From sequence record NC_052662.1: a DNA stretch of 64,000 nucleotides; one strand, 5' to 3'. The notes under the pieces were generated by a model, which was given only the letters and a program-made list of their open reading frames with translations, made no database searches and was not told where the DNA came from. Positions within the stretch are counted from its first letter, which is position 1. The number at the start of each line of letters is the position of its first letter. Origin of the DNA: Escherichia phage Mt1B1_P17. A program made the position numbers and the translations under genes. This document shows positions 1,189 through 34,660 of this stretch, piece by piece.

Positions 1189-1668
1189 TTAGTCCTTCTT
1201 GACTTTAACGCCCATTGCGCCTATACTCAAACCTTTAAGAACGCCGTCTTTACGAGCTTGATATAATTCAGGGTCGTTGAATTGGATTTTAACGAGGGGA
1301 GTTCCTTCCACAACGAGTTCGTCACCAATGTAACAATCGACTTCATTTACCCAAGCTTTAATTGGAGAAAACTTATCGGTGTTCTTCATGTGACCAAGAT
1401 TACCACTAATGTTGGTAATATTCTCATTGAAGTTGTCAACCATCTTCCTGATTTCCAAATCAGACATGCGCTCTCCGTGGAGATCGTCTTCTTCAGGTGG
1501 ACAATACAAGACCTCAATAACCTGCATCTTTTCTTCATCAAATTTATTTTGTTTGACTAGAGTTTCAGGTTTTTGAGATGGTATAGAATCTTGTTGGGAT
1601 TCAGAATTCTCTTTAAAACCAGCGAAGGTTTTGAAGAGTTCCCACAGTGTATCTTTATTGAGTTCCAT
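1189..1668 (-). CDS. hypothetical head-assembly protein
   Basis: 159 aa ORF, 3 nt from the neighbouring ORF, in the packaging/head module; no motif recognised. Confidence 0.3.
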   Translation of the reverse strand: MELNKDTLWELFKTFAGFKENSESQQDSIPSQKPETLVKQNKFDEEKMQVIEVLYCPPEEDDLHGERMSDLEIRKMVDNFNENITNISGNLGHMKNTDKFSPIKAWVNEVDCYIGDELVVEGTPLVKIQFNDPELYQARKDGVLKGLSIGAMGVKVKKD

Positions 1669-20782: not shown

Positions 20783-21738
20783 GCAGATTAACAGAAGAGC
20801 AGAAAGCAGATATCCTTAGTATGAGTGCAGAGGGTATGTCTTCTCGTAATATTGCAGCAATTGTTTTAGGTAGCCCAACAAGAAAAAGCACAGTAAATGA
20901 TTTCCTTGCACGTTTCAGTGGAAGTAAACAAGAACCCGTTAAAAAGAAACAACCAGTTATTAAAATTATTGATGTTGAAACTGCACCAGAGATTGCATAT
21001 ACTTTCCGTCGATTCAAAGCCTTCATTTCTCCAGACCAGGTGATTCGCAGAGGTTATTTGTTATCCTACTCTTCTGCTGACCTATATACTGGTGAAGTGG
21101 AAGGTAAGAACTTGTCTTCTTATCCTCTTTTTGATATTGATCATACAGATGATTGGGAGCTTTGCCAAGATCTTTGGAACCTTCTGAATGAGGCAGATGT
21201 AGTTGTGGCACACAACGGATATAAGTTTGACCGTGCATACATTAACCAACGATTTGCATATCACGATATGGCTCCTCCTTCTAATTATGTAGTCGTTGAT
21301 ACATTGAAGGCAGCTAAGAAACAATTTGCACTTCCTTCCAACTCCCTTAAAGAAATGGGAGCATATTTCGAAACAGAAAGTGAAAAACTGGATAACGAGG
21401 GGTTCCCTTTATGGAAAGCATGTTGTGAAGGTGATCGTGATGCTTTTGAACGTATGCAGATTTACAATGATGGCGATGTTGTTTCACTCCGTGATTTGTA
21501 TATGAAAATCCTTCCGTGGATTCCACAGCATCCTAACTTATCCGCTTATTACCCAGATGAGAAAGTCCGTTGTTCTCGTTGCGGCAGTGATCATGTTCAC
21601 GTTGTTACTGGTAAGCAATACCACACTGCGGTAAGTTCTTTCGATATCATTCGTTGTGAATCTTGTGGAGGTTTGTCACGTAGTAGAGCAAACACCAGAT
21701 CCAAAGATAAACGAGCAGCAACTATTATTGGAATCTAA
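20779..21738 (+). CDS. DnaQ-like 3'-5' exonuclease with N-terminal HTH and C-terminal zinc ribbon
   Basis: 319 aa; Exo I IDVETA, Exo II VVVAHNGYKFD, Exo III-like YNDGD; Cys pairs CSRCG/CESCG at the C-terminus. Confidence 0.5.
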   Translation: MSRLTEEQKADILSMSAEGMSSRNIAAIVLGSPTRKSTVNDFLARFSGSKQEPVKKKQPVIKIIDVETAPEIAYTFRRFKAFISPDQVIRRGYLLSYSSADLYTGEVEGKNLSSYPLFDIDHTDDWELCQDLWNLLNEADVVVAHNGYKFDRAYINQRFAYHDMAPPSNYVVVDTLKAAKKQFALPSNSLKEMGAYFETESEKLDNEGFPLWKACCEGDRDAFERMQIYNDGDVVSLRDLYMKILPWIPQHPNLSAYYPDEKVRCSRCGSDHVHVVTGKQYHTAVSSFDIIRCESCGGLSRSRANTRSKDKRAATIIGI

Positions 21739-21744
21739 TAATCA

Positions 21745-21770
21745 GGGAGCTTATTGCTCCCTTTTTTTAT
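21745..21770 (+). terminator. Rho-independent terminator
   Basis: GGGAGC-TTATT-GCTCCC followed by TTTTTTTAT. Confidence 0.7.
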
Positions 21771-21825
21771 TGACAAAAATTTGATATTAGTGTATACTCT
21801 GCTAACCACAATAAAAGGAGGAAAT

Positions 21826-22053
21826 ATGAGCATTACATTAACAGGTAACGAAATTTTCGAACTGTTTGAAATGTTAGGTCTAAACTATACCATCGAGAAA
21901 GACCCAGATTTACTTGACGTTGAAATAACAATTCAAGAAGATACAGCAATCTACAATGATGATGGTGATGTTATCTATCAAGGTAGGGTAGCTTATTATA
22001 CAGACTACCCAGAAGAAGGCGCAGTAGGAATTCAGGAGGAAAATTATGTCTAA
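21826..22053 (+). CDS. hypothetical protein
   Basis: internal ATG of track ORF 21754..22053, preceded by AAAGGAGG. Confidence 0.5.
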   Translation: MSITLTGNEIFELFEMLGLNYTIEKDPDLLDVEITIQEDTAIYNDDGDVIYQGRVAYYTDYPEEGAVGIQEENYV

Positions 22054-22447
22054 TGCTTTTGATAATCAGGTTGACGGTGATCACTACACAAAAATGGCAA
22101 TGCAACCTATTGAACTAGCTTATTTGGTTGGTGGTACGCCTTGTTTTTGCAAATTGGCAAAATACGCAACACGTATTAAAGGTGAACGTCAGATTAACCT
22201 AGATAAAGCTATTCATTGTATTGAACTAGAAAGAACCCTTATGCAAAATAACACGTATATGGTTCGTGAAAATTATCCATCTATGACAAATGCAGCTAAA
22301 CATGATCAAGCTATGCTTCTTATTGATTTCTTCACAAAAGATCCTTTAGTACGAGTAGCACTGAAACACATGTATAACTCTTCTTATGTAGATGCAATCG
22401 AAGCTATTAAACAACTTAAGGAACGTATTAGTGGCGAGCAATACTAA
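22046..22447 (+). CDS. hypothetical protein
   Basis: 133 aa, RBS GGAGGA. Confidence 0.55.
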   Translation: MSNAFDNQVDGDHYTKMAMQPIELAYLVGGTPCFCKLAKYATRIKGERQINLDKAIHCIELERTLMQNNTYMVRENYPSMTNAAKHDQAMLLIDFFTKDPLVRVALKHMYNSSYVDAIEAIKQLKERISGEQY

Positions 22448-29830: not shown

Positions 29831-30397
29831 ATGAAAGTAGAAAAAACAAAAATTGAAGGTGCGGTAATTATCAAACCAGACGTTTATAAAGATGATCGTG
29901 GTTTCTTTTTAGAAACATACAATGAACAAAAATACGAAGATATCATTGGTAAACAAACTTTCGTTCAAGATAATATGTCTAAATCAAACTTCGGTGTTTT
30001 GCGAGGAATGCACTTTCAAACAAATAATCCGCAAGGTAAGCTTGTTCGTTGTGTAAGTGGGGAAGTATTGGATTTCGCTGTAGACTTACGTAAAGACAGT
30101 CCAACTTACGGTGCTTGGGACGGTGTTGTTCTTCGTGCACGACACCATACGCAGTTTTGGCTTCCTCCTGGTTTGGCACATGGCTTTATAGTTTTGAGTA
30201 TGGATGCGATCTTTGAATACAAATGCACAACTCCATACGACCCTTCTAGTGAACAAAGTTTACGTTGGGATGATCCTGACATAGGGATCGATTGGGGCTT
30301 CGATATGATTTTTGACGAAGGTTTTAAACCTATCTTATCAACAAAAGATGCAATGGCTAAATCTTTTCAACAGTTACGTAGCGAGGGTGTATGCTAA
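29831..30397 (+). CDS. dTDP-4-dehydrorhamnose 3,5-epimerase (RmlC-like cupin)
   Basis: 188 aa; RmlC motifs GVLRGMHFQ and LPPGLAHGF. Confidence 0.75.
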   Translation: MKVEKTKIEGAVIIKPDVYKDDRGFFLETYNEQKYEDIIGKQTFVQDNMSKSNFGVLRGMHFQTNNPQGKLVRCVSGEVLDFAVDLRKDSPTYGAWDGVVLRARHHTQFWLPPGLAHGFIVLSMDAIFEYKCTTPYDPSSEQSLRWDDPDIGIDWGFDMIFDEGFKPILSTKDAMAKSFQQLRSEGVC

Positions 30398-31233
30398 CAT
30401 ATCTGGTATTGGGCGGTAATGGACAACTGGGACAAGCTTTACGTAAAGTGGTTCCTTCAAATGTATCTTTAATTTATCCTAAAGAACGTGTAGATATTAC
30501 AAATTTTGAAGCTGTGCGAAACGCTATTGTTGAAGATTATGTAGATGGTGTTATTAATTGCGCCGCTTATACGGCTGTAGATAAAGCAGAACATGATTTT
30601 GCTACTGCTTTGGCTGTTAATGCGTATGGACCTGCAAATATTGCGGCAGTGTGCAGCAAACTTAAAATTGATTTTGTGCATATTTCTACAGATTATATTT
30701 TTAATTATTCTCATCCTATTTTTGAAGATACTACACCTAACCCAATAAACAATTATGGGTATACGAAAGAACTTGGTGAAAAAATGGTGCGAGGAGTTAA
30801 CCCAAATGCATATATTATTCGAACAACCTCGGTATATAGCGAATTTGGAAATAACTTTCTAAAAACCATGTTGTCTCGCTATAATGATGGACAACGTGAT
30901 TTTATTATTGTTGCTGATCAGTTCTCTTGTCCAACATATGCTCCAGATTTAGCAGAAGCTATTTTTGAAGTATTAAAAACAGGTTGGTCAAGGTCTGTTA
31001 AGACTTACCATTTTGCAGGAAGCCATCTTATTTCTTGGGCGGAGTTTGCGGAAAAGATCTTGACACAGATGCCAGAACCTGTTAAGATATCGGCGGTATC
31101 AGCTTCAACCTATAATGCTCCAGCAGCACGTCCGGTGAAGTCACAACTAGTAACCAGTCACTATCTTACAAAATCAGATTTAAATAAAGGTATTGAACAG
31201 TCTTTAGCAGTATTACTTAATAAGGAGAGGTAA
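30391..31233 (+). CDS. dTDP-4-dehydrorhamnose reductase (RmlD-like)
   Basis: 280 aa; Rossmann LVLGGNGQLG and catalytic YGYTKELGE. Confidence 0.7.
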   Translation: MLTYLVLGGNGQLGQALRKVVPSNVSLIYPKERVDITNFEAVRNAIVEDYVDGVINCAAYTAVDKAEHDFATALAVNAYGPANIAAVCSKLKIDFVHISTDYIFNYSHPIFEDTTPNPINNYGYTKELGEKMVRGVNPNAYIIRTTSVYSEFGNNFLKTMLSRYNDGQRDFIIVADQFSCPTYAPDLAEAIFEVLKTGWSRSVKTYHFAGSHLISWAEFAEKILTQMPEPVKISAVSASTYNAPAARPVKSQLVTSHYLTKSDLNKGIEQSLAVLLNKER

Positions 31234-31655: not shown

Positions 31656-32156
31656 ATGGCTAAAGTAGTAGATGAGTTTGATATGCTACGAGTCGATGAA
31701 GGACTGAAGCTTACTGTTTATCAAGACCATCTTGGTTATTGGACAGTCGGCATAGGACACCTTCTGACTAAAATAAAAGATAAAGCAAAGGCTATTCAAA
31801 TCTTAGATAATCTTCTTGGTCGTAAGACTAATGGAGTTATCACAGAAAAAGAAGCCCGTCAAATCTTTGCTGACGATGTTGCAAAAGTGAAGAGAGACAT
31901 AAAAAACAGTACTATCTTATCACCAATCTATGATAAGGTTAGTGATACTCGTAAATTGGGAATAATTAACATGGTTTTCCAGTTGGGGTTAAAAGGTGCT
32001 GAAGGGTTTCAAAATAGCTTGACTTTAATCAGCAATGCATATTATACTCAAGCAGGTAAAAACATGCGTAAAAGCCGATGGTATAGCCAGACGCCAAACC
32101 GTGCTGAACGAGTAATTAAAGTTCTGACTTCTGGAACTTTAGATGCTTACAACTAA
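31656..32156 (+). CDS. T4-type lysozyme (GH24 endolysin)
   Basis: 166 aa; near-identity to T4 lysozyme landmarks: LRVDEGLKLTVYQDHLGYWTVGIGHLL, NMVFQLG, KSRWYSQTPNRAERVI. Confidence 0.9.
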   Translation: MAKVVDEFDMLRVDEGLKLTVYQDHLGYWTVGIGHLLTKIKDKAKAIQILDNLLGRKTNGVITEKEARQIFADDVAKVKRDIKNSTILSPIYDKVSDTRKLGIINMVFQLGLKGAEGFQNSLTLISNAYYTQAGKNMRKSRWYSQTPNRAERVIKVLTSGTLDAYN

Positions 32157-32160
32157 TAAA

Positions 32161-32180
32161 GGGGCTTCGGCCCCTTCTAA
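32161..32180 (+). terminator. hairpin terminator after the lysozyme gene
   Basis: GGGGC-TTCG-GCCCC followed by ttctaaaa. Confidence 0.5.
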
Positions 32181-32193
32181 AAGGAGTGCTACT

Positions 32194-32952
32194 ATGGGAA
32201 ATAAAACCGCAGCTAAAACACAACGGCAGAAACTGGCTAATTCAGCAAAGATTGAAAGCCGTTATGCAGCAAAAGCGGTAGGTAATGACGATTACCGTTT
32301 AGATGAATTTATGCCTGAAGGGGACCAAAATAAGATTGTTCAAAGCATGATCTGGAATGATCTGACTGTTGTAAATGCTCCGGCAGGGACTGGTAAAACC
32401 TCTGTTGCTTTATGGAAAGCTTTGCAGATGCTTCGTTCAGGAGACTTCCGTAAACTACTTTTTATCAAGAACCCTACTGAAGTCGGAGATGACCAGATTG
32501 GTTTCTTGTCTGGGGATAAAACAGATAAACTAGCAGCACACTATGAATCTACAAAACGTATTTTCCAGCAATTCATGACAGCCAACAAATTGGAAAACGA
32601 TATTGGATCAGGTAAGATCGAATTGAATATTCCTAACTATTTGTTGGGGGCTACCCTGGATAATACAATCGTCATTATTGACGAAGCACAACTTATGTCA
32701 ACAGAAACACTTAAACTTCTTATTGAACGTGCAGGTATTAATACGCATGTTATTGTATTAGGCGATGTTCGCCAGACATATGCAATTAAAAAACGTAGCA
32801 ATGGTCTGCATCAAATTTTGGAACTTTTATATCCAGAGAATGAAGAAGGTGTTCGTGAGCCAATTGTAGATTTTATTGGATATGTTGAACTGACAACGGA
32901 CGATAATAAACGTGGACGTTTGTCTAAACTGATTACTGAAGTGTTTATTTAA
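32194..32952 (+). CDS. phoH: PhoH-like ATPase
   Basis: start moved to internal ATG after AAAGGAG (track ORF 32143 would run through the terminator hairpin); Walker A NAPAGTGKTS, Walker B IVIIDEAQ. Confidence 0.7.
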   Translation: MGNKTAAKTQRQKLANSAKIESRYAAKAVGNDDYRLDEFMPEGDQNKIVQSMIWNDLTVVNAPAGTGKTSVALWKALQMLRSGDFRKLLFIKNPTEVGDDQIGFLSGDKTDKLAAHYESTKRIFQQFMTANKLENDIGSGKIELNIPNYLLGATLDNTIVIIDEAQLMSTETLKLLIERAGINTHVIVLGDVRQTYAIKKRSNGLHQILELLYPENEEGVREPIVDFIGYVELTTDDNKRGRLSKLITEVFI

Positions 32953-32984: not shown

Positions 32985-33488
32985 TTGATGGGTGTAGCAA
33001 CAATAGCTATCGGAAGAAGCGGTATAGATGAGTGCTATCAAACGGGACTCGTAAAACCTAACGAATTTCGTCAAATTTGTGTAAACCATATTGAAAAAGA
33101 GATTGCTCTTACTTTAGAGAATATGACCCTCCGAGATAAACTGGAAATGTTTAAATGTTGGTGTCTAGGAGAAGATTGGCTTTTAAACCATTTTCAAGAA
33201 CTTTCTGATAGTAAAGAAAGCTTGTTTGATTGTATAATAGGAATAGCTGGCTCCGATCCTAGCCTTCTGCACATAACAGAAGAAGAGGCGAAGTTACTGT
33301 TCTTAAGTAATTTGTTTAATAAGAAAGCACTGCTTGTTCGTGATTGCAGTGATCTTCTTAATAACCCGCTCGCAACGTCTGATCAAATTTTTGTTGACAA
33401 AGAGACACTACGTGCGATAGAATACATCTGCAAATACGTGAATGGCGGGAAAGCGGTTCTTAAAACATTAACAGAGGAGGAAGAATAG
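32985..33488 (+). CDS. hypothetical protein
   Basis: 167 aa, RBS AAGGAGGA. Confidence 0.5.
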   Translation: MMGVATIAIGRSGIDECYQTGLVKPNEFRQICVNHIEKEIALTLENMTLRDKLEMFKCWCLGEDWLLNHFQELSDSKESLFDCIIGIAGSDPSLLHITEEEAKLLFLSNLFNKKALLVRDCSDLLNNPLATSDQIFVDKETLRAIEYICKYVNGGKAVLKTLTEEEE

Positions 33489-34180
33489 TGACGACAATTA
33501 TTGCAACCAAAAATAAGATTTTGAGTGACGGTAAGGTAACTTTTGGTGGACGTGTAGATTCTATTAATTTCAAAAAGGTCCGAAAAATTGGAGATTACCT
33601 TGTAGGTGGTGCTGGTCGTCTGACCTCCGTGCTTTCTTTCTTTCAATGGTTTGAACAAAATCTACAGTGCGAAGCAGCACGTGATGCTGTCCCTGGTTTG
33701 ATGATTCACTCTGATCCAGATAAAGAAGATGAAGAGTTTATTGCACTTGTTGTTCATCCAGACGGACGTATTTTCCTGCACGAAGGTAACAACCCAACAC
33801 GTGCATATCCGATTGATGAAGAATATTATGCAGTAGGGAGTGGGTCAGATTTTGCTTTAGCTGCTCTTGATGCAGGGGCAACACCAGAACAGGCTATGGA
33901 AGTAGCTAAAAAGCGAGATGCTTTTTCTGGTGGTGAAACATTTATTGAAGAACAAGACGAGATTATTGAATTAACAGATGATGATTTAGAAAACTTCTCC
34001 AAAGAAGAATTGATCAATCTTTTGAAATTCGGTAATCCCTACGGTGAAGAAGAACCTCGTAACGTGGCAGGTAACGAGGCGGATACTGAAGAAAAATCTG
34101 TTGCAGAAAACAACTTGACTTCTAAATCTGAAAATATTAATCTCGTAAATGTGGCGGATTTCGAAGGAACCGCTATTTAA
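33488..34180 (+). CDS. HslV/proteasome beta-like Ntn peptidase with acidic C-terminal extension
   Basis: 230 aa; mature N-terminus would be TTIIA (Thr nucleophile), GGAGR and GSGSDFALAALDAG motifs match HslV landmarks. Confidence 0.55.
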   Translation: MTTIIATKNKILSDGKVTFGGRVDSINFKKVRKIGDYLVGGAGRLTSVLSFFQWFEQNLQCEAARDAVPGLMIHSDPDKEDEEFIALVVHPDGRIFLHEGNNPTRAYPIDEEYYAVGSGSDFALAALDAGATPEQAMEVAKKRDAFSGGETFIEEQDEIIELTDDDLENFSKEELINLLKFGNPYGEEEPRNVAGNEADTEEKSVAENNLTSKSENINLVNVADFEGTAI

Positions 34181-34225: not shown

Positions 34226-34660
34226 ATGTTACAAGTTCCTGCTAAGTTTGTTGAAGGCGCTATCCACTCTTACCGTCAAACATGTAAGAGGGCAAGAAAC
34301 TGTTTAGATGGTCTGGTGGCAAAAACCTATACTGTTGAAAAGAAGAAACGTTGGTTTGGCAAAGATGTTTATGAAGTTAATATTTTTGGTGAACATAAAC
34401 TAAACCATGACACTCCTGAAAACATGTTAGAAATATTTCTAAGAGATGACAAAATATCTCCTATGGATTACCAACTTTTAAAATTTTATGATTCTTCTTT
34501 GGCTATTGATAAGTTTGTTGAAGATATTCTGTCTAGAAAAACAGATAAAAACACTTATCCTCTAGAAGCTGATCAAATAGGATTATTAAACGAGATTTCA
34601 TCCTTCAAAGAGTTGGATAATATTACAAAAGAGGAGATTTTAGATGGCATTAGATTATGA
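34226..34660 (+). CDS. hypothetical protein
   Basis: 144 aa, RBS AGGAGA. Confidence 0.5.
   Translation: MLQVPAKFVEGAIHSYRQTCKRARNCLDGLVAKTYTVEKKKRWFGKDVYEVNIFGEHKLNHDTPENMLEIFLRDDKISPMDYQLLKFYDSSLAIDKFVEDILSRKTDKNTYPLEADQIGLLNEISSFKELDNITKEEILDGIRL

Follow-up and report, generated by a model that had tools for sequence, protein, structure and literature searches.

The gene at positions 33488..34180 on the + strand of a 64,000-nucleotide stretch of Escherichia phage Mt1B1_P17 DNA (sequence record NC_052662.1; this whole stretch is called the window below) encodes a 230-residue protein that, as judged from sequence profiles and a predicted structure, belongs to the proteasome/HslV superfamily of N-terminal nucleophile (Ntn) hydrolases with their alpha-beta-beta-alpha core. 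This protein, referred to here as the peptidase, appears to be a compact phage 'PPH'-type proteasome homolog in a long form rather than an ortholog of HslV, and beyond its core it carries a C-terminal module composed of a predicted helical hairpin and an acidic tail. Taking the whole package together, we favour with moderate confidence a stand-alone PPH-type protease of the early/middle phase that is equipped with a recruiting C-terminal module. The gene is already known and annotated, and its family has already been described bioinformatically. Our literature search found no description of the hairpin and acidic tail of the long form, nor of its constant position downstream of PhoH.

The Ntn core and its catalytic residues

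The peptidase gene and its parts are as follows.

33488..34180, + strand: coding sequence of the proteasome/HslV-like Ntn peptidase, 230 amino acids, equivalent to phAPEC8 gp175 'peptidase HslV family' (open reading frame, profiles and homologs)
33474..33480, + strand: Shine-Dalgarno sequence GAGGAGG, 7 nt before the GTG of the peptidase (read from the sequence)
33491..33493, + strand: codon of Thr2, predicted to become the nucleophilic Thr1 after removal of the initiator Met; homologs keep M-T-T-I with few or no exceptions
33488..33967, + strand: Ntn core, residues 1-160 (Escherichia coli HslV alignment, AlphaFold2 and Foldseek)
33971..34030, + strand: conserved, predicted helical hairpin, residues 162-181, LTDDDLENFSKEELINLLKF (column statistics and AlphaFold2)
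34031..34177, + strand: predicted disordered acidic tail, residues 182-230, net charge -8 (AlphaFold2 confidence and homolog composition)

A preliminary description of this DNA, made from its letters alone, had the open reading frame (ORF) beginning after the initiator Met with TTIIA and carrying GSG and ALAALDAG segments in that order. Translation of 33488..34180 gives M-TTIIATKNK at the N-terminus, followed by G117-S118-G119 and A123-LAALDAG-130, which confirms that the gene is real and had been correctly read. It is not a chance ORF, since it matches phrog_1040, scores above the gathering threshold of Pfam family PF00227 and has many homologs. The GTG start is the earliest one possible after the upstream in-frame stop, and it shares one nucleotide with the TAG stop of the preceding 167-residue ORF, the equivalent of phAPEC8 gp174 (TAGTG). 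Because of this overlap gp174 and the peptidase are probably translationally coupled. With the start in this position the sequence leaves no possibility of a propeptide. Methionine aminopeptidase prefers small P1' residues. As Thr directly follows Met and there is no upstream start, this known specificity suggests that the nucleophile would be exposed through removal of the initiator Met, as in HslV.

The superfamily assignment is reached along several routes. The Pfam profile PF00227 (Proteasome) matches the peptidase with 25.6 bits (E = 1.1e-5; gathering score 22.4 bits) and also matches 40 of 51 long-form homologs, while the PHROG family phrog_1040 ('peptidase HslV family') covers residues 1-229 with E = 1.6e-63. 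When PDB sequences are searched, HslV chains come out best (1m4y, E = 4.9e-9), and 20S beta5 and the proteasome homolog BPH are much weaker. We built an AlphaFold2 model of the monomer from 63 homologs. Its mean predicted local distance difference test (pLDDT) score is 83.7, with most of the core above 90. Foldseek against the PDB returns, each with a probability of 1.00, HslV (6kui, 8.9e-11), BPH (5ovt) and archaeal and eukaryotic 20S beta subunits; the target-normalised TM-scores with HslV are 0.65-0.69.

In the alignment with E. coli HslV, residues T2, D14, K30 and G43 correspond to Thr1, Asp17, Lys33 and Gly45, and G117-S118-G119 to Gly123-Ser124-Gly125. Across the 51 long forms, which share 26-58% identity, M1, T2, K30, G43, G117 and G119 do not vary, and conservation reaches at least 90% at T3, D14 and S118. 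The catalytic positions are likewise invariant or at least 90% conserved in the set of 63 homologs. The earlier assignment as an HslV/proteasome-like Ntn peptidase is therefore borne out by the profiles, by the AlphaFold2 model and its Foldseek matches, and by the conservation of the catalytic positions in 51-63 homologs: the structure prediction recovers an Ntn fold and not another one, and the Thr, Lys and Ser equivalents are all retained.

A compact phage homolog with a C-terminal module

Within the superfamily the likeness to HslV is one of fold, and it is at this level that the preliminary reading as HslV-like stands; the peptidase does not behave as an HslV ortholog and instead groups with PPH-type homologs. 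The two NCBIfam equivalog models for HslV, NF003964 and TIGR03692, score 32.2 and 31.4 bits, respectively, about four-fold under their cut-offs of 137 and 157.75 bits. The AlphaFold2 model contains a single long helix H1 (residues 45-67), and the position of helix H2 of HslV (residues 68-83, VPGLMIHSDPDKEDEE) is a Pro/Gly-rich coil. The core is also nearer to the short phage forms of about 140 residues (64-82 bits, 31-36% identity) than to E. coli HslV (41 bits, 27% identity). Three indels relative to HslV are common to the peptidase and the short forms, namely the NGHV hairpin, the H1-H2 segment and the RALLENTE insert. The low equivalog scores, the absence of H2 and the closeness to the short phage forms argue together against orthology with HslV.

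PPH has been described as phage-borne, with about 140 residues and without helix H2 (Fuchs et al. 2021, PMC8665760). We judged likeness to PPH from this published description and used the short phage forms as a proxy for the reference WP_042125023.1. The peptidase resembles PPH in being phage-encoded, in its compact Ntn core with Thr1 right after Met, in the missing H2 and in having no HslU-type partner; it differs in length, since its 230 residues divide into a core of about 160 and a C-terminal module of 70. A second group in the same study is RPC. It is a relative of PPH, bears a C-terminal extension and is known from Proteobacteria only (PMC8665760). By description RPC is also similar to the peptidase, as it combines a PPH-like core lacking H2 with a C-terminal extension of unknown fold. 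RPC is reported from Proteobacteria and not from phages, unlike the long form described here, which was found only on phage contigs apart from one probable carry-over fragment. A further group, AAH, also occurs in phages (PMC8665760). With HslV (ClpQ) the peptidase shares the fold, the exposure of Thr1 via Met removal and the equivalents of Asp17, Lys33, Gly45 and Ser124, and it differs in lacking H2 and in its extra C-terminal module; HslV itself, the peptidase of the bacterial HslUV protease, is a double hexameric ring (dodecamer). BPH (PDB entries 5OVS and 5OVT), the second-best fold match, is likewise a stand-alone proteasome-like protease with no known ATPase partner. It is more distant (20-22% identity, TM-score 0.52-0.55), and it is a cellular heptameric double ring; the peptidase was modelled here as a monomer.

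The loss of H2 bears directly on the question of a host partner. In HslV the C-terminus of HslU is bound in a pocket formed by Phe54 and Phe57 of H1, Ala79 and Lys80 of H2, and Gln114 (PMC6429459). In our alignment Phe54 corresponds to L49, Phe57 to F52 and Gln114 to Y107, and Ala79 and Lys80 have no counterpart. The two H1 positions thus stay hydrophobic as in HslV, but with the H2 helix absent the HslU-tail pocket is incomplete, and according to both the alignment and the model the canonical docking site is not preserved. One could imagine that the peptidase recruits host HslU (ClpY), the two making up a hybrid protease that depends on ATP and has a changed specificity, given that E. coli has HslU and that the nearest solved relatives of the peptidase are HslV chains. 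The altered pocket makes such a partnership less likely, as do the equivalog scores, and we regard it as rather unlikely. A canonical HslV working with host HslU is unlikely for the same reasons: the low scores with the NCBIfam models, the lack of H2 and the changed pocket residues.

The C-terminal region is strongly acidic, as had been noted before: residues 155-230 contain 21 acidic and five basic residues (net charge -16), and the last 70 residues (161-230) have a net charge of -13. The earlier picture of a 70-residue acidic tail does not hold for the region as a whole, which is not uniform. Past the last core strand, the 51 long forms show an acidic segment, then a hairpin motif and then a second acidic run. 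The hairpin conforms to L-T-[RKE]-E-x-[LA]-x-x-[ML]-[ST]-K-E-E-L-[LI]-x-x-[LI]-F-[GP] and is predicted by AlphaFold2 as two helices, 164-169 and 172-181, with pLDDT 86-89. About eight long forms terminate just past it, which argues that the hairpin is the conserved unit. Beyond the hairpin the sequence is hypervariable even between close relatives and its acidic composition is kept; pLDDT falls below 50 for residues 189-214. Among homolog tails of at least 15 residues, 42 of 43 are net negative, with medians of 89 residues, a net charge of -11 and 24% Asp plus Glu.

A profile of the hairpin returned nothing significant from the PDB sequences (the best match was MafG, E = 0.043) and did not retrieve HslU. 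We rejected the idea that the C-terminus mimics the tail of HslU, as the extreme C-termini are not conserved and HslU was absent from that search. The protein P0023, considered as a natural tail-less variant, was also discarded, being only an annotation with a misplaced N-terminal start.

Other long forms are more elaborate. Those of Vibrio, Aeromonas and Klebsiella phages have extra C-terminal blocks that include an HeH/SAP-like DLKxxAxxLGIKFxHNI segment (L005 4001-4834, L001 5001-5867, L006 4001-4885 and L007 4001-4915; proteins P0061-P0063), and some metagenomic long forms carry Cys-x2-Cys and Trp-rich C-terminal domains. The HeH/SAP assignment itself was not retained, since it came from just two marginal Pfam matches, Rho_N and Ish1, in one member each. 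These extra blocks are missing from the peptidase, where the HeH/SAP-like block is absent or degenerate; they have either been lost or were never present.

Proteasome homologs of phages are widespread. Homologs of the peptidase occur in 232 phage records, and when 1.84 billion cluster representatives were searched exhaustively, 2334 matched at E<=1e-3, of which 123 reached E<=1e-10, so that the metagenomic clusters run into the thousands. In BFVD, 47 viral proteins have this fold at E<=0.001, and all of those with names are uncharacterised. The short forms (about 130-155 residues) match residues 1-150 of the peptidase. Long forms (180-330 residues) make up about 60 of the top 150 representatives, and their match reaches to residue ~180-210. 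All long-form loci sit on phage contigs, and the clade is one of myoviruses of ~100-155 kb. We also scanned 185,579 bacterial species genomes, one per species, with a single peptide pattern. The sole return was a 425-bp contig 100% identical to residues 68-208 of the peptidase (L042, JAPMLR010000072.1, from the draft assembly of Lysobacteraceae bacterium JHOS43), which is probably coliphage carry-over in the assembly. The long form thus appears to be restricted to phages.

One variation on the long-form locus is seen in Aeromonas phage 4L372D, where a second, divergent proteasome-like gene lies directly upstream of the long-form peptidase (L006 3432-3983). It encodes 183 residues starting with M-TCIIAL, has G-C-G in place of G-S-G and matches phrog_1040 with E = 9.6e-26. 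The same two-gene arrangement is expected in L032, L033 and L035. With such a second gene, the rings of these phages might be hetero-oligomeric.

Possible modes of action

Over the 8 kb around the peptidase gene, nucleotide identity to E. coli myoviruses of the phAPEC8 type (Phapecoctavirus, Stephanstirmvirinae) is 99.4-99.7%, and the window belongs to a Phapecoctavirus (99.5% nucleotide identity to phAPEC8). RefSeq phages, among them anhysbys, ZCKP1 and nepoznato, have 'peptidase HslV family' products with 99.6% identity to the protein, and homologs with 66-77% identity, including phi92 gene 058, bear the same annotation. In phAPEC8 the gp175 gene is part of a block transcribed from one strand that contains ribonucleotide reductase (RNR), thymidylate synthase (ThyA), glutaredoxin, a T4-type lysozyme and PhoH, together with two DNA methyltransferases, a Ser/Thr phosphatase and Sir2. 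The block is one of early/middle metabolism and lies about 30 kb from the head genes. The nearest features in the window are the following.

32143..32952, + strand: PhoH-like P-loop ATPase (SF1-helicase-like), two genes upstream of the peptidase (PF02562, E = 1.2e-36)
32985..33488, + strand: equivalent of phAPEC8 gp174, 167 amino acids, an orphan all-helical protein directly upstream of the peptidase
34226..34660, + strand: equivalent of phAPEC8 gp176, 144 amino acids, an orphan downstream of the peptidase (phrog_15078, unknown function)

The neighbours of the peptidase are thus PhoH, two orphan proteins and a DNA methyltransferase, in agreement with the earlier remark that no partner unfoldase is adjacent. 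The full 148-kb phAPEC8 genome has no annotated Clp, Lon, FtsH or HslU either.

As to assembly, activity, substrates and tail function, we infer the following course of events. The peptidase would be made in the early/middle phase alongside the nucleotide-metabolism and DNA-modification genes, and host methionine aminopeptidase would remove the initiator Met to expose Thr1. This residue would act as the nucleophile, aided by the equivalents of Asp17, Lys33 and Ser124, just as it does in HslV and in 20S beta subunits. Rings like those of HslV, with the active sites enclosed, would probably be assembled and, with no dedicated AAA+ unfoldase, unfolded, loosely folded or recruited host or phage proteins would be degraded or trimmed. 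The conserved hairpin may be where a partner, a substrate or a neighbouring subunit docks, and the acidic tail may act through its charge, either by attracting basic (for example nucleic-acid-binding) proteins or by keeping the pore region open. If active alone, the peptidase would amount to a proteasome-like protease of minimal, self-contained design that serves in host takeover, and its hairpin and tail would show how substrates gain access to the chamber without an unfoldase.

Several observations speak against a stand-alone protease. In the absence of HslU, HslV cleaves proteins poorly (PMC6429459), and an unpartnered phage ring might therefore be nearly inactive. Some proteasome homologs may not form rings at all, and connectase is a ligase (PMC8665760). 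Our literature search turned up no work on the function of a phage proteasome homolog; genome descriptions mention the peptidase merely as HslV being present without HslU. The VEcB genome (MT932211.1 / NC_052663.1, 147,702 bp) contains a fusion of PhoH and peptidase of 267 residues (21498-22298, protein P0066), in which PhoH residues 1 to ~112 run in frame into the peptidase from about residue 65. The equivalents of Thr1, Asp17 and Lys33, the C-terminus of PhoH and all of gp174 are missing from this locus, implying a deletion of ~1.2 kb. In a second VEcB record (OZ035773.1, 148,885 bp), which is 1183 bp longer, the peptidase is intact. The fusion is a knockout of natural or laboratory origin, or else an error of assembly; if the deletion is genuine, the PhoH-gp174-peptidase trio is dispensable on the laboratory host.

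The precedent of connectase also suggests a different kind of enzyme. The peptidase may be a sequence-specific Ntn enzyme with one defined target, such as a processing peptidase, a connectase-like transpeptidase or ligase, or an amidohydrolase; it may then be monomeric, with target recognition provided by the hairpin and tail. Connectase is a monomeric and specific ligase among the proteasome homologs (PMC8665760), a core without H2 and with further C-terminal modules may not fit into stacked rings, and the varied extra C-terminal domains of the long forms suggest targeting. The core is nonetheless closest to the ring-forming HslV and BPH and keeps the full HslV-type catalytic set, and among the loci compared no candidate target is consistently encoded beside the peptidase. 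We consider an enzyme of this kind rather doubtful.

Another possibility is that the hairpin and tail are a built-in substitute for an ATPase cap, which could work in one of two ways. By analogy with the HslU C-terminal peptides that activate HslV, a tethered amphipathic helix docked onto the face of H1 that is freed by the loss of H2 may switch the ring on. Alternatively, the module may join the peptidase ring to PhoH to give an ATP-dependent machine that degrades proteins or ribonucleoproteins; if true, this would be a new kind of phage degradation machine. We judge a built-in cap in either form to be unlikely.

A separate ring ATPase encoded by the phage would be the more conventional partner, and two candidates can be named: PhoH and the AAA protein gp014. 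In all 33 long-form loci whose flanks are long enough, the strand of the peptidase also carries PhoH, 0.5-4.2 kb upstream of it. Among these loci are Aeromonas and Vibrio phages in which peptidase identity drops to 34-38%, and the intervening genes vary. Among the loci compared PhoH was not found beside short or other forms. PhoH2 has been reported to be hexameric (PMC7390352), and the N-termini of PhoH are basic where the tail of the peptidase is acidic. Against this, PhoH proteins are associated with RNA helicase and RNase functions and are not protein unfoldases (PMC7390352). In addition, the order RNR-glutaredoxin-lysin-PhoH-peptidase-ligase is conserved throughout the phage clade, so that common descent explains the linkage without functional coupling. 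The association of PhoH with the peptidase looks like shared synteny.

The second candidate, gp014, is the sole generic ATPase in phAPEC8. It matches PF00004 above the cut-off (29.9 bits; gathering score 21.2) and has weak matches to Rix7/VCP-type chains. Its gene is outside the window, ~105 kb from that of the peptidase, and an aromatic-hydrophobic-Gly pore loop is not seen in its sequence. Its homologs occur mainly in phages of Enterococcus, Bacillus, Staphylococcus and Lactococcus, with none among the leading peptidase organisms. We therefore rejected gp014 as an unfoldase partner on account of its distance and a phage distribution unlike that of the peptidase. With both candidates taken together, a phage-encoded ring ATPase as partner seems quite unlikely, and a protease acting without a dedicated unfoldase remains the reading that we favour.

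As side observations on these ATPases, the N-terminal extensions of PhoH are basic, with net charges of +3 to +11 before the Walker A motif (32143..32952 in the window and loci L001-L036), and Vibrio phage 424E50-1 has a 464-residue PIN-PhoH protein of the PhoH2 type in place of the usual PhoH. The gp014-type ATPase is widespread in myoviruses of Gram-positive hosts. At L041 39005-41404 a 379-residue AAA-family ATPase (gp014) is encoded next to a 394-residue protein (gp013) that contains four CapR-homology repeats and a treble-clef zinc finger and is annotated as 'endonuclease'.

The resemblance to HslV further raises the possibility of a decoy that sequesters HslU or co-assembles with HslV and in this way shields phage proteins from host HslVU. 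Phages often neutralise host proteases, but the HslU pocket is not conserved, mixed rings with host HslV are unlikely at 27% identity to the E. coli protein, and the invariance of catalytic residues in distant homologs argues for selection on catalysis. A decoy function is very unlikely. Finally, that the peptidase of this tailed phage might be its prohead or virion maturation protease is hardly credible: it belongs to the wrong module, with about 30 kb between it and the head genes, it goes unmentioned in the paper on the phi92 virion structure, and a protease of the S78 type follows the portal gene.

1189..1668, - strand: Peptidase_S78_2/XkdF-type serine protease, 159 amino acids, equivalent to phAPEC8 gp117, directly after the portal gene (Pfam, E = 1.4e-11)

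Other genes of the window

The product of this last gene, gp117, is annotated as 'DNA methyltransferase' in RefSeq and in phrog_1530, and it also matches head-maturation-protease PHROGs. On the basis of these matches and that to Peptidase_S78_2, gp117 is probably the prohead protease and mis-annotated.

Of the two orphans flanking the peptidase, gp174 is a candidate partner or regulator. The downstream gp176 has no Pfam match and is confined, among the loci compared, to 16 Stephanstirmvirinae-like ones. PADLOC gave no match for the peptidase, and a role in defence or anti-defence was rejected on this ground. Just upstream of the glutaredoxin-lysozyme-PhoH-peptidase cluster lie the genes corresponding to phAPEC8 gp166-gp169 (including 30391..31233, + strand), which encode RmlA/B/C/D-like proteins and thus an apparently complete dTDP-rhamnose pathway.

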